Source of the DNA: Escherichia phage WPEC2
Length of the DNA stretch: 64,000 bases
Sequence record: PV691511.1
Strand: one strand, 5' to 3'
The notes below the pieces were generated by a model. The model had not been told where the DNA came from and made no database searches. It was given only the letters and a program-made list of their open reading frames with translations. Position 1 is the stretch's first letter. Each line of letters begins with the position of its first letter. The position numbers were made by a program, and so were the translations under genes. Below are positions 1-64,000 of this stretch, one piece after another.

Positions 1-80
1 GTATTATTTTAAGTTAGCTTACCGAACGTAGGGCTAGTCACCCAATGGGATACTCGTCACTGTCCCACTCAATAAAACTA

Positions 81-110
81 TTGACAACCAATAGTAAAAT
101 GTAGTATAGT
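81..110 (+). promoter_or_regulatory. sigma70-type promoter for tRNA cluster (-35 TTGACA 81-86, 18-nt spacer, -10 TATAGT 105-110)
   Basis: Consensus -35 and 5/6 -10 read directly; first tRNA begins about 12 nt downstream. Confidence 0.55.
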
Positions 111-121
111 AAAGAGGTAGG

Positions 122-195
122 GCGTTCTTGGTGTAGCGGTAGCATTCCGTCCTTCCAAGTCGGCGGCACGAGTTCGATCCTCGTAGAACGCTCCA
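122..195 (+). tRNA. tRNA-Gly (anticodon UCC), CCA encoded
   Basis: Hand-folded cloverleaf: acceptor GCGTTCT/AGAACGC, T-arm ACGAG-TTCGATC-CTCGT, anticodon loop CTTCCAA; one T-T mismatch in anticodon stem. Confidence 0.7.
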
Positions 196-293
196 AATTA
201 TTTAATAAAGGGTTGCCAGAAAACTTTCTCTTTTACTCATGGTTTTCTCCTTCTCTCACACCTCTTCTGGTTGCCCTTCATTAAATGATTTAT

Positions 294-369
294 TGGTTTG
301 TAGTGTAGTCAGGTAGCACACGACACTTTGACTGTCGTAGGTTTGGTTCAAATCCAGACAGACCAGCCA
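294..369 (+). tRNA. tRNA-Gln (anticodon UUG), CCA encoded
   Basis: Hand-folded: U1-A72 first pair and G73 discriminator as in enterobacterial tRNA-Gln; anticodon stem CGACA/TGTCG with loop CTTTGAC; T-loop TTCAAAT. Confidence 0.75.
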
Positions 370-374
370 TATAA

Positions 375-451
375 CGGAATTTAGCTCAGTTTGGTAGAGC
401 ATACGCTTTGGGAGCGTAGGGTCGCAGGTTCGAATCCTGCAATTCCGACCA
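375..451 (+). tRNA. tRNA-Pro (anticodon UGG), CCA encoded
   Basis: Hand-folded: C1-G72 first pair typical of bacterial tRNA-Pro; anticodon stem TACGC/GCGTA with loop TTTGGGA; T-arm GCAGG-TTCGAAT-CCTGC. Confidence 0.75.
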
Positions 452-457
452 ATTTAA

Positions 458-531
458 TGTTTCGTAGTTCAATGGTAGAACCCACGACTGATAATCGTGA
501 GACACAAGTTCGATTCTTGTCGAAACAACCA
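458..531 (+). tRNA. tRNA-Ile (anticodon GAU), CCA encoded
   Basis: Hand-folded: D-stem GTTC/GAAC, anticodon stem CACGA/TCGTG with loop CTGATAA, T-arm ACAAG-TTCGATT-CTTGT. Confidence 0.7.
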
Positions 532-533
532 AT

Positions 534-61003: not shown

Positions 61004-61012
61004 TAGTCCTCC

Positions 61013-61444
61013 TTAGTTGTTAGCGAACTCAATAGTGAGGTCAACTTTACCATCATCAGAAATAACCATGTTTTTAGTATTTTTAAAGATGATATCTACT
61101 TTACCTTCACTTACACGACAGAATGCAACACCATCTGCAACTTTATCGATATAATATTTGTAAGAAAGAATACCTACTTTACTACGACCAGCACCTTTTG
61201 TGAAAGAAGGGCTTACATCGAAACGGAAACCTTTAGAAGAAACAACACGGTAAGAACGTCCAGTGGGGATATGTTCAATAACAGAGACATTGTTCTCAAC
61301 AACTTTTACAGCAAACTCTTCAGGATGGTCCTCAACAATCATGTGCGGGATGGCAAATGCCAACGCTTGTTTGTGTTTAATAACACCAGCACCCAGAGCA
61401 CCAGCAGCTTTAACTTTTGCATTCAGATCGATTGTCATACGCAT
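61013..61444 (-). CDS. hypothetical protein
   Basis: ORF track; preceded by promoter and RBS GAGGAG. Confidence 0.4.
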   Translation of the reverse strand: MRMTIDLNAKVKAAGALGAGVIKHKQALAFAIPHMIVEDHPEEFAVKVVENNVSVIEHIPTGRSYRVVSSKGFRFDVSPSFTKGAGRSKVGILSYKYYIDKVADGVAFCRVSEGKVDIIFKNTKNMVISDDGKVDLTIEFANN

Positions 61445-61477
61445 TTTTACTTCTCCTCTTGTTTGGTTGATGAGACA

Positions 61478-61506
61478 AGTATAAATCCCTTCCGCACAGT
61501 TGTCAA
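61478..61506 (-). promoter_or_regulatory. sigma70-type promoter on minus strand (-35 TTGACA, 17-nt spacer, -10 TATACT)
   Basis: Motifs read on the reverse complement between the primase-helicase terminator and gene 61013-61444. Confidence 0.5.
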
Positions 61507-61510
61507 CAGG

Positions 61511-61538
61511 TATTTTTAATAAAAGGGCCGAAGCCCTT
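61511..61538 (-). terminator. hairpin with UUCG tetraloop and U-rich tail after the primase-helicase gene
   Basis: AAGGGC-TTCG-GCCCTT followed by TTTATTAAAAATA on the minus strand; overlaps the stop codon. Confidence 0.5.
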
Positions 61539-63315
61539 AATAGTTGCTATCCGTAGGCAAATTAGCAGGATTGTTGAAATACTGCTCTTTGTCATGCAGA
61601 GTTGCAGTTCTAATGTCATAGTAAAACTGCCCTGCCGGACCAGTTTCCGAGAACTCACGGTTTTTTAGGATAAAGCAATGAGTTGTATTGCGTTCTACAG
61701 GGTCTTCAGCAGCTTTATCTCGTTCCAAAGCCAAGGTAATACCAGCACCTTTAGCCAAGAAGCTACTACCCATTGCATCGTCCTCTGTTAAGTGTTCATT
61801 GCCACCATTAGCTGATTTCTTAACATGTGAGATGACGATAATAGTTATAGCATACTCTTTCATGATGCGCTTCAACCATGTTGCTAACTCTTCCTGGGCT
61901 TGAACATCCATACCAGAAAGCAAATCAGAATAAGGGTCGATAACAAGAATTGTTACTCCAAAATAGATGATCATCTCCAAAACTTTTTCTTTGATAGACT
62001 CCACATCTGCTCCACGATCATCGCACACATAAAAACGTGGTGATCCATCTTCTCTTTCGTAAAAATCTAGGATTTTTTCTTTATTCTCTTCCAAGATTTG
62101 AAATTTCTCTTCCGGTGTTTTCCTGTGTAGAGGAATATGCAGGAACGAGGATAACAGGTTACGAGAATATTTCTTATAAGTTGCTTCCAAGGACAGAATA
62201 CCTAGGGTATGTTCTGGGTGCGCAACAATAATATGTTTGGTGATCTCATTCACCATCAAAGTTTTACCGATACTGGTCTTTGCCAAGATGACTGTAATCT
62301 CTTCCTCTACTAAACCACCACCCAGCATATTTGCAGCAACACGCATAAAAGGAGGCAAGGTAATCATCTTGGATTCCAAGCATTCTAATGCAGCTTCATA
62401 CAAGACATTAGAAGCATAAACACCTGCTGGGGTGTATAGACGAGCACTCCAAAAAGCTTTTACGAAATCTTTTGCACGACCTTCTTCCAGATACTGATTG
62501 GCATCCTTAAGATCCATCTGCATACGGTAGACTTTGTTACGAGGCAGCACCTTAACAATATTTTCAAATGCCTCGTTACCTGCTTTGTCATTATCCATGC
62601 AAACAATAATCTTCTTAAATTTTTCAAAGAAAGGATATTGTGCCTGAACTTGTTTATACATACTGGTTTCACCAGTTGTGCCACTAACTACTGCTGGAAG
62701 TTCATATTTGTTGTCCAAGTTTTCAGACAGCATTTGATAAGCTGCCAGAGCATCGTGTTCACCACCTGTAATTACAACAGTATGAGAACGGTCTGCAAAA
62801 CGAATTTGTCCAAAAAGATCTACATCTTTACCTACTTGACCAATAGGTTTACTGAAATCTTTAGGATGAATACGACGCTTAAAACCAACCAATTCTTTAC
62901 CGATGGTAGTTGGATATAAACAACTTTCTACTACCATCTGATCCCCTTCCTGACGGTATTCATAACGAACACCATAGAAAGATGAAACTTTTTCTTTAAT
63001 GCCTCGATAACCACGTGGGTTGGTTGATGTTTCTTGAACAATTTTACGATGAATCTGTTTATTAAATTCCGAACCCACAATCTCCTCCTCTTCTTCTAAA
63101 ACTTCACCATTTTCTCGTAACCATTCTACGCTAGGAATAGTGTATTCACACGCAAAGCACTTAGCACCTTTATGCTCTCCATTAGAATCTAATCCATAAA
63201 CCATCAGGTTATTACGAGAGCGATCCTTGCCATTTTTCATGCAGCGCGGACACCCTGTATGCCCTTCCTTGCTAAGATCAACATCAAATCCATATTTAGT
63301 TATAATGTGCGACAC
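61537..63315 (-). CDS. bifunctional primase-helicase (T7 gp4-like: Zn-ribbon, TOPRIM primase, DnaB-type helicase)
   Basis: N-terminal CPRC...CFAC zinc ribbon, TOPRIM-like VVITGGEHD and CMDNDKAG, Walker A AKTSIGKT. Confidence 0.75.
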   Translation of the reverse strand: MSHIITKYGFDVDLSKEGHTGCPRCMKNGKDRSRNNLMVYGLDSNGEHKGAKCFACEYTIPSVEWLRENGEVLEEEEEIVGSEFNKQIHRKIVQETSTNPRGYRGIKEKVSSFYGVRYEYRQEGDQMVVESCLYPTTIGKELVGFKRRIHPKDFSKPIGQVGKDVDLFGQIRFADRSHTVVITGGEHDALAAYQMLSENLDNKYELPAVVSGTTGETSMYKQVQAQYPFFEKFKKIIVCMDNDKAGNEAFENIVKVLPRNKVYRMQMDLKDANQYLEEGRAKDFVKAFWSARLYTPAGVYASNVLYEAALECLESKMITLPPFMRVAANMLGGGLVEEEITVILAKTSIGKTLMVNEITKHIIVAHPEHTLGILSLEATYKKYSRNLLSSFLHIPLHRKTPEEKFQILEENKEKILDFYEREDGSPRFYVCDDRGADVESIKEKVLEMIIYFGVTILVIDPYSDLLSGMDVQAQEELATWLKRIMKEYAITIIVISHVKKSANGGNEHLTEDDAMGSSFLAKGAGITLALERDKAAEDPVERNTTHCFILKNREFSETGPAGQFYYDIRTATLHDKEQYFNNPANLPTDSNY

Positions 63316-63327
63316 TTTGTTCTCCTG

Positions 63328-63606
63328 TTAAAATGGTTCGTTAGTCTCCATCATATATTCTGCTTCTAGTTCTTCCATGTGCTTTCTAAATTGGAAAGCA
63401 ATTTCTGCTACAGTTACATTTAAATCTTTTTCAAAAACCTCTGTAGAGCCTTCATAAAAACGAATACCGTCAATTAAAAGCCCTCCGTGGTAATCCCAAT
63501 CACTTTCACGAGAAAGTGGGTTAGGTTCTTCATAATAGTAATCCACCTCCACAACTAAGGCTTTCCCATTACGAGTGGTGTATTCAAAATCAAAAGTGTT
63601 AATCAT
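63328..63606 (-). CDS. hypothetical protein
   Basis: ORF track. Confidence 0.4.
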   Translation of the reverse strand: MINTFDFEYTTRNGKALVVEVDYYYEEPNPLSRESDWDYHGGLLIDGIRFYEGSTEVFEKDLNVTVAEIAFQFRKHMEELEAEYMMETNEPF

Positions 63607-64000
63607 TATAGCTCCTCAAATAAAAGTCTACGACGCTCATTCAACACATCAATGTGATAATGAGTCCTGACATACTTAGCTAATGCTAATCCTTTCTCCA
63701 TGCAAACATCGGGAGCACTTAATAAGTATTCCGTAATATCTTTCCACTCGGAAGGTGTTTCAGCAAAGAATAACAGATCTTTAAACTCTTGTGTATGATA
63801 ATTCTCACGAGGAGAACAGATTAAAGGTAAACCCTTAGCACCTGCCTCAAGAATTTTAAGATTGCTTTTTGCGTTATTAAACACGTTATCGATCAATGGC
63901 GCAAGACTGATTTGATGACCATCGTAAGATTCCATGTAGTTGGCATATGGTCTCACACCTTCATAAACACAAGTTGGTGCTACATTTTCTCTGATTACAG
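63606..64000 (-). CDS. glycosyltransferase (GT-B fold, family 1-like), 3' portion only; gene continues beyond the window end
   Basis: KILEAGAKGLPLICS resembles the conserved E...EA.A.G.P motif of GT1/GT4 enzymes; reading frame stays open upstream of the track start to position 64000. Confidence 0.4.
   Translation of the reverse strand, partial: VIRENVAPTCVYEGVRPYANYMESYDGHQISLAPLIDNVFNNAKSNLKILEAGAKGLPLICSPRENYHTQEFKDLLFFAETPSEWKDITEYLLSAPDVCMEKGLALAKYVRTHYHIDVLNERRRLLFEEL

Follow-up and report, generated by a model that had tools for sequence, protein, structure and literature searches.

A 64-kb stretch of Escherichia phage WPEC2 probably represents an ordinary phAPEC8-like myovirus with one gene block misplaced by assembly

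We analyzed a 64,000-nucleotide (nt) stretch of Escherichia phage WPEC2 (record PV691511.1; hereafter the window), in which T7-type replication genes, a λ gpE-like capsid gene, a contractile tail, anaerobic ribonucleotide reductase (RNR) genes and tRNA genes stand together. An original prediction had read this combination as a noteworthy mosaic transcribed by the host RNA polymerase (RNAP). We conclude, with a probability of about 0.88, that the window comes from an ordinary virulent myovirus of E. coli, a phAPEC8-like member of Phapecoctavirus (subfamily Stephanstirmvirinae), that this phage is transcribed by host RNAP, and that the position of one early/middle gene block within the window is an artefact. 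The gene combination itself is the conserved core of a known lineage.

Results

The window matches Phapecoctavirus over most of its length

We compared two large pieces of the window with GenBank phages by megablast. More than 130 phage records matched, 59-65 of them covering at least 80% of the query; identity reached 100% for WPEC4 (PV682947) and WPEC6 (PV763039) and was 98% for phAPEC8, as for many further Phapecoctavirus isolates. By local blastn, ~94% of the window aligned to the complete phAPEC8 genome at 80-99% nt identity, mostly 92-99%; a few small open reading frames (ORFs), tail-fibre segments and ~730 bp within the polymerase gene were left unaligned. The type species of Phapecoctavirus is phAPEC8, and by convention of the International Committee on Taxonomy of Viruses members of a genus share at least 70% nt identity with the type species across the genome; over its 64 kb, the window lies above this value.

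Gene content is shared with phAPEC8, and so is gene order over window 1-1270 and 17937-64000, which correspond to phAPEC8 60373-61730 and 61731-110012. The two phages differ in the position of the block at 1271-17943 (its equivalent lies at 118704-134878 in phAPEC8), in the polymerase intein, which phAPEC8 lacks, in an additional endosialidase-like tail protein of phAPEC8 (gp095), and in several diverged fibre segments and a few diverged small ORFs. The displaced block violates the conserved gene order of the genus; since we attribute it to an assembly join, as argued below, it does not count against membership.

The closest records, WPEC4 and WPEC6 from Thai hospital wastewater, both carry the polymerase intein, and the phage is essentially the one deposited under these names. 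WPEC6 is ~100% identical to the window in two pieces (1268-17945 and 17944-64000), and WPEC4, of which parts of the record were compared, is ~100% identical over 1270-17945 and 17944-61258. In segment order and orientation, however, these records differ from the window and from each other. We found nothing relevant in the literature on WPEC phages. The group at large is common: a 98-amino-acid (aa) window protein is indexed, residue for residue, in 873 blocks of a public assembly collection, and the phAPEC8-like cluster, together with phi92-like and rV5-like phages, is among the groups most often isolated on E. coli (BASEL paper, PMC8594841).

A probably inherited core rather than a recent patchwork

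All gene elements that the original prediction had listed were found in the window by Pfam, PDB, tRNA and promoter checks. That they form a noteworthy mosaic was not borne out, the gene set being that of the known core at 80-99% identity to phAPEC8. The prediction had itself named close identity to a well-characterised genus as incompatible with a mosaic; genome comparison found such identity, to phAPEC8 and to WPEC4/WPEC6, and the claim therefore fails on its own terms.

Both phAPEC8 and phi92 (Justusliebigvirus) are annotated with the same genes in the same order. Their annotations liken the terminase, portal, capsid, sheath, tube, hub, wedge, RNR and replication genes to those of rV5 and PVP-SE1, and note many core genes also as similar to Felix O1. 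The phi92 record already reads 'Similar to DNA polymerase from T7-like phages' and 'HK97-type fold'. Module order is shared with phi92, as is an intein-bearing polymerase, and the window's capsid, sheath and tube proteins have nearly the same sequence as the solved phi92 proteins gp124, gp130 and gp131; PDB entry 9mjn is common to the match lists of these three homologues. Unlike these proteins, phi92 as a whole reaches ~88% nt identity or less, and its tRNA and fibre sets are not the same. The overall architecture also agrees with rV5 (Vequintavirus), a phage of another subfamily with a smaller genome (131-140 kb), which we liken to the window by its published description, not by sequence.

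The best Pfam and PDB matches carry the names of T7, λ E, the Mu portal and the T4 terminase, which is what a novel mosaic, recently built from T7-like replication genes, a λ-like head module and a myovirus tail, would lead one to expect. Such an origin is nevertheless highly improbable: the same combination in the same order recurs in more than 100 deposited relatives from three genera, the similarity to T7 proteins is remote, and family names record the first-studied member rather than a donor. The apparent patchwork is thus an effect of Pfam names that recall the family members studied first, and the gene combination is a lineage core conserved in phAPEC8, phi92 and the rV5 group and partly common with Felix O1.

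This core, probably inherited stably, comprises a distant T7-type polymerase and primase-helicase, an HK97-fold capsid of the λ-E family plus a decoration protein, a contractile tail whose baseplate bears many fibres, a class III RNR and tRNAs.

Replication proteins are distant relatives of the T7 replisome

The features discussed here and below are collected in Table 1. The solved relatives of the polymerase at E≤0.01 are only T7 gp5 chains (E 5.5e-17, ~137 aa aligned). The primase-helicase carries Toprim_2 (residues 182-276) and DnaB_C (333-554) in a single chain, the architecture of T7 gp4, to which it aligns over residues 146-574, across both domains, at E 7e-25 with a match score of only ~90 bits. 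The T7 replisome thus provides, with gp5 and gp4, the closest solved relatives of both proteins. Because this similarity is remote, we see in the sequences no sign of recent exchange with T7.

An intein interrupts the polymerase. It begins with Cys1, contains TADHRW and FLEGFLIADGY, and ends in ITITGN followed by Cys+1. It is an exact in-frame insertion relative to the 865-aa intein-less phAPEC8 gp079, to which the polymerase exteins are 99-100% identical. Among the matching records, 33 of 116 contain it, a presence/absence polymorphism within the group, and it is already annotated in the relatives PaulScherrer and SD2. The Pfam match is sub-threshold (Intein_splicing E 0.007, 16.6 bits against a cut-off of 35.8 bits; LAGLIDADG_3 E 0.15); the call therefore rests on the sequence features, the exact insertion and the annotation of relatives.

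Next to the replication genes lies a 295-aa protein that is hypothetical in all annotations seen and is probably a phage single-stranded DNA-binding protein (SSB). Its N-terminal domain is modelled as an OB fold, it has an acidic tail ending in Phe, and its best fold matches are bacterial SSB, RPA and PriB. The tail ends in PPMDFDDDIPF, the C-terminal tip of E. coli SSB; it is conserved across 38 homologues and gives weak PDB and PHROG matches. The protein may engage host partners of the SSB tail. The fold search lends no support to T7 gp2.5 as a model for it, gp2.5 not being among the 60 matches listed.

Table 1. Positions of features in the window
Feature	Position	Strand	Basis or remark
Sigma-70-type promoter TTGACA-18-TATAGT	81-110	+	ahead of tRNA genes; identical in phAPEC8
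Five tRNAs: Gly-TCC, Gln-TTG, Pro-TGG, Ile-GAT, Met-CAT	122-688	+	ARAGORN
98-aa conserved hypothetical protein	896-1192	+	phAPEC8 gp123 homologue
Junction 1	1270/1271		blunt join of gp123 terminator to 3' end of gp056-like gene
Displaced early/middle gene block	1271-17943	-	phAPEC8 gp056 to gp029; blastn
Promoter inside displaced block	4531-4504	-	in block
NrdG	7571-8041	-	in block
NrdD	8038-9852	-	in block
UvrD-type helicase	12099-13691	-	in block; Pfam/PHROG
Junction 2	17941-17945		block end joined to gp122 upstream region; 5 nt (TTAAT) common to both sides
Lysis, packaging and head genes	17999-25731	+	Pfam, PHROG; includes gp122 homologue
Spanins	18220-18847	+	
Large terminase	18857-20932	+	
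Sigma-70-type promoter TTGACA-17-TATTAT	20936-20964	+	between terminase and portal genes
Mu-type portal	21034-22599	+	
Putative scaffold, 371 aa	23175-24290	+	
Decoration protein	24310-24708	+	just upstream of capsid gene
Major capsid protein, λ-E family	24730-25731	+	PF03864 Phage_cap_E, E 1e-36
Contractile tail, baseplate and multiple tail-fibre/tailspike genes	28334-54256	+	Pfam, PHROG, PDB
Sheath	28334-29707	+	DUF3383; phi92 gp130, E 2e-235
Tube	29754-30233	+	phi92 gp131
Tape measure	31048-33036	+	chaperone gene also in tail set
Sigma-70-type promoter TTGACA-18-TACAAT	33074-33103	+	directly after tape-measure terminator hairpin
Baseplate hub	34290-35300	+	E217_GP41
Fibres/tailspikes	37135-42083 and 44465-54256	+	
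Baseplate wedge	42336-43823	+	Baseplate_J
Probable SSB, 295 aa	54313-55200	-	ends in PPMDFDDDIPF
Family-A (T7-type) DNA polymerase precursor, 1110 aa	56877-60209	-	Pfam DNA_pol_A, E 2e-11
Intein, 245 aa, LAGLIDADG-like segment	57729-58463	-	polymerase residues 583-827
Sigma-70-type promoter TTGACA-17-TATACT	61478-61506	-	directly after primase-helicase terminator hairpin
Bifunctional primase-helicase, T7 gp4 type	61537-63315	-	Toprim + DnaB_C

Host-type promoters and the absence of a phage RNA polymerase

The original prediction had proposed four near-consensus sigma-70 promoters. Scored against TTGACA/TATAAT over 12 positions, each of the four sites matches at 11, with a spacer of 17-18 nt, and each is intergenic and correctly oriented; the second lies at 20936-20964 rather than at 20937-20966. 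The window holds eight such 11/12 matches, compared with 2.3 ± 1.6 in 100 dinucleotide shuffles, one of which reached 8. Sigma-70-like sites precede further late operons in the window; sites of the 10/12 type lie upstream of 22693, upstream of 27252 and at 17948.

At three of the four promoters, phi92 retains TTGACA and, 18 nt further on, a -10-like hexamer, despite diverged intergenic sequence. The phi92 equivalents read TTGACA-18-TAGAGT for the promoter ahead of the tRNA genes, with diverged flanks, TTGACA-18-TAAAGT for that between terminase and portal genes, and TTGACA-18-TAAAAT for that after the tape-measure gene, where the terminator is kept too. Selection on the hexamers would give this pattern of conservation amid diverged flanks. 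The fourth promoter is not conserved in phi92, where the intergenic gap after the primase-helicase gene is missing; phAPEC8 shares it, as a 'putative host dependent promoter' annotated downstream of the primase-helicase gene (107482-107520).

T7-like phages (Autographiviridae) encode a single-subunit RNAP. We found no such gene among the ORFs of the window by Pfam and PHROG, in agreement with the original prediction, and none in the complete phAPEC8 genome, which we used for the search outside the window that the prediction had called for. We listed all phAPEC8 ORFs of at least 300 aa. Outside the regions equivalent to the window there are 12, the largest being NrdA (746 aa) and the others at most 394 aa long; ten of them were scanned with Pfam, each giving a non-polymerase match, and the remaining two are annotated as the RNR small subunit and thymidylate synthase. 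Each large ORF of the window encodes a virion, replication or RNR protein. On this evidence, the phage lacks an RNA polymerase.

An unrecognised, non-canonical RNAP could in principle hide among hypothetical proteins or be split into small subunits, and many ORFs do lack a Pfam match. We consider this next to negligible: neither the phAPEC8 ORF list nor the window contains an unassigned ORF of at least 400 aa outside the virion module, the 448-aa gp043 homologue sits in a PHROG labelled ribonucleotide reductase, and with host-type promoters conserved, a polymerase of the phage's own would hardly be needed.

Because no RNAP candidate was found, promoters exceed chance and their hexamers are conserved in phi92, the predicted reliance on host RNAP finds support. 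Judged from sequence, this dependence is well supported, and it is already published for rV5. We infer that host Eσ70 uses these promoters; placed after terminators at operon boundaries, they would allow it to transcribe the phage.

The rV5 paper (2013) describes 33 sigma-70-like promoters genome-wide and a candidate anti-sigma factor resembling Srd. Upstream of late genes it notes a weak T4-late-like motif, and it reports no homologues of T4 gp33, gp45 and gp55 (PMC3606486). As candidates for a distinct late-promoter motif we considered TATAAATA and the rV5 motif TGGTAAAATA; neither occurs in any intergenic region of the late module.

The 'PHIRE promoters' of phAPEC8 were also considered, as a foreign promoter class. 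They are ten copies of a conserved hairpin-forming 20-mer, GTAGGGCGGCAATGGTGCCG (L001 556-3221; L003 43712-47561), of which the window has none. In the early region of phAPEC8, each copy is preceded by a -10-like hexamer, and immediately upstream of two copies lies an annotated host-type promoter; we therefore set this class aside, and the arrangement suggests that the 20-mer is a shared 5' leader element.

The phage might also redirect or modify host RNAP for its middle and late genes by means of small phage-encoded factors, so that the sigma-70 sites would cover only part of the transcription programme. The Srd-like candidate and T4-late-like motif of rV5 point this way (PMC3606486), as do the many small early ORFs without known function and the ten hairpin 20-mers after -10-like hexamers. 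Yet the late operons of the window carry good sigma-70 sites that are kept in phi92, neither late-motif candidate occurs between late genes, and the T4 gp33, gp45 and gp55 homologues are missing in rV5. We regard such factors as possible, though clearly the less likely account, and retain transcription by host RNAP from sigma-70-type promoters.

Ribonucleotide reductases for both oxygen regimes

The anaerobic RNR pair of the original prediction was confirmed by Pfam: NrdD matches NRDD (E 3e-164) with a Gly_radical domain (E 2e-27), and NrdG matches Fer4_12 (E 6e-43) and Radical_SAM. These are the glycyl-radical reductase and radical-SAM activase of a class III RNR. The further hint at infection under low oxygen was fair as far as it goes. 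It is unspecific, however, since the aerobic NrdA and NrdB are also encoded in the phAPEC8 genome (gp159/gp161). Judging by its genes, the phage is equipped for both oxygen regimes and, because NrdAB is present too, not specialised for anoxia. NrdDG would complement NrdAB encoded elsewhere in the genome, providing for deoxynucleotide synthesis at any oxygen level in a facultative anaerobe. T4 likewise carries both aerobic and anaerobic RNR systems. In the native gene order of the phage group, NrdD and NrdG do not stand between tRNAs and terminase module as they do here.

The displaced block ends at breakpoints of sibling records

The two RNR genes belong to a 16.7-kb block, of which the original prediction made no mention. 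Window 1268-17945 corresponds to phAPEC8 118704-134878 and is thus inserted between the two flanking segments that are contiguous in phAPEC8. It equals WPEC6 117005-133682 with one mismatch. In every relative the block lies ~57 kb away, downstream of the replication module, and its orientation relative to phAPEC8 is the original one. It also holds a macro-domain phosphatase and HAD hydrolases (Pfam/PHROG).

At junction 1, the block is joined to position 1270, where the terminator-like hairpin and T-run behind the gp123 homologue end. The gp056-like gene loses its final codon and its stop codon in this join: in WPEC6 the protein ends in NEE, whereas in the window it continues as NEKKAPN for 52 extra codons (ORF 1109-1855), a read-through antisense to the neighbouring gene. 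This fusion protein is not on record. At junction 2, the block ends 7 nt upstream of the gp029-like start codon.

No GenBank phage record spans either junction. The canonical gp123-gp122 adjacency is intact in 61 GenBank records, and the terminase lies 1.3 kb downstream in each of ten independent contigs (ENA, Logan and NCBI) with a gene for the identical gp123-like protein. The GenBank phage set and the exact-protein look-up are the informative comparisons here. Exact junction scans of IMG/VR, JGI metagenomes and GTDB genomes returned zero; the canonical-adjacency control, run in IMG/VR only, also returned zero, so that the IMG/VR scans had no power, and we leave the scans of all three collections out of account.

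WPEC1 (PV659873), WPEC4 and WPEC6, sibling records from the same source, disagree with one another in the order and orientation of their segments. Duplicated fragments of 77 nt and ~155 nt are numerous in them and occur in both orientations, several with a single mismatch, a pattern expected if short-read graph contigs had been concatenated (k = 77, a value we deduced; bubbles of 2k+1). These 'complete genome' records also hold strings of tiny ORFs. The junctions of the window recur as breakpoints in them, with another partner in each case: window 1270/1271 is a breakpoint in WPEC4, and the right end of the block has its counterpart in breakpoints at 17944 (WPEC4 and WPEC6) and 17943 (WPEC1). 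Because the junctions coincide with breakpoints in scrambled sibling records, the placement of the block is most probably an artefact of joining assembly contigs.

A true transposition in the isolate, by illegitimate recombination between the tRNA array and the lysis/terminase genes, would account for a block that is internally intact (one base off WPEC6), that keeps its original orientation and that shares a few bases with the other side at junction 2. We nevertheless judge it unlikely. Neither junction occurs in deposited records, canonical adjacency prevails in the 61 records and the ten independent assemblies, both junctions fall on breakpoint bases with other partners in visibly concatenated siblings, and junction 1 costs a stop codon and creates an antisense read-through ORF whose product is not on record. 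We therefore keep to the contig join as the explanation.

Virion and tRNA genes

The capsid protein matches PF03864 at 127.2 bits (cut-off 22.9 bits) over profile positions 7-328 of 329, and solved phi92 gp124 at E 1e-202. Among its solved matches at E≤0.01 no chain is named λ gpE, the other relatives being labelled major capsid, major head or capsid protein. The full-length match above threshold and the separate decoration protein agree with the λ gpE family, from which the window member differs in sitting on a ~150-kb myovirus. Sheath and tube also match other PDB chains named tail sheath and tail tube; together with the tape measure, hub and wedge they make up a contractile tail.

Divergence from phAPEC8 is greatest in parts of the fibre region. 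The sites that differ are 42069-42076, 45253-46048 and 53335-54277, and two segments are unaligned. The gene for gp095 (phAPEC8 85976-88741) is absent from the window. These differences fit the known allelic variation of receptor-binding genes in the group.

The five tRNAs are the distal part of an 11-gene array, and phAPEC8 annotates the same five at 60494-61148, the last (Met-CAT, window 610-688) being noted there as 'tRNA-Pseudo-CAT'. About 82 bp between tRNA-Gln and tRNA-Pro of phAPEC8 (60747-60830) are missing at window 370-375. A Logan contig (ERR15003838, 1971-2489) carries an HNH/NUMOD4 homing-endonuclease gene in the tRNA region, upstream of the gp123 homologue; this gene occurs neither in the window nor in any of the nine other assemblies shown.

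Discussion

We place the window in Phapecoctavirus, read its gene set as an inherited core transcribed by host RNAP, and attribute the displaced block to assembly. Several observations weigh against parts of this reading. The genome-wide absence of an RNAP rests on phAPEC8, the phage's own genome being covered by the window only. No transcript map for Phapecoctavirus was found in the literature searched, and near-consensus sigma-70 promoters ahead of late structural operons leave temporal control unexplained. As for the block, neither WPEC4 nor WPEC6 has a contig end at its right end (17943), and the bases shared at the junctions (3-5 nt at junction 2 and 1-2 nt at junction 1, as by chance) would permit microhomology-mediated recombination.

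The gene set, the missing phage RNAP and the sigma-70-type promoters are already described for phAPEC8, phi92 and rV5 phages, which rank among the coliphages isolated most often; the window carries little weight as a discovery. The apparent order errors in the window and in WPEC1, WPEC4 and WPEC6 do have a consequence, in that claims of synteny or 'mosaicism' drawn from these records are not trustworthy. Were the transposition true after all, Phapecoctavirus would tolerate the moving of ~30 early/middle genes, including NrdDG and a UvrD-type helicase, as well as the fusion of a gene to 52 antisense codons.

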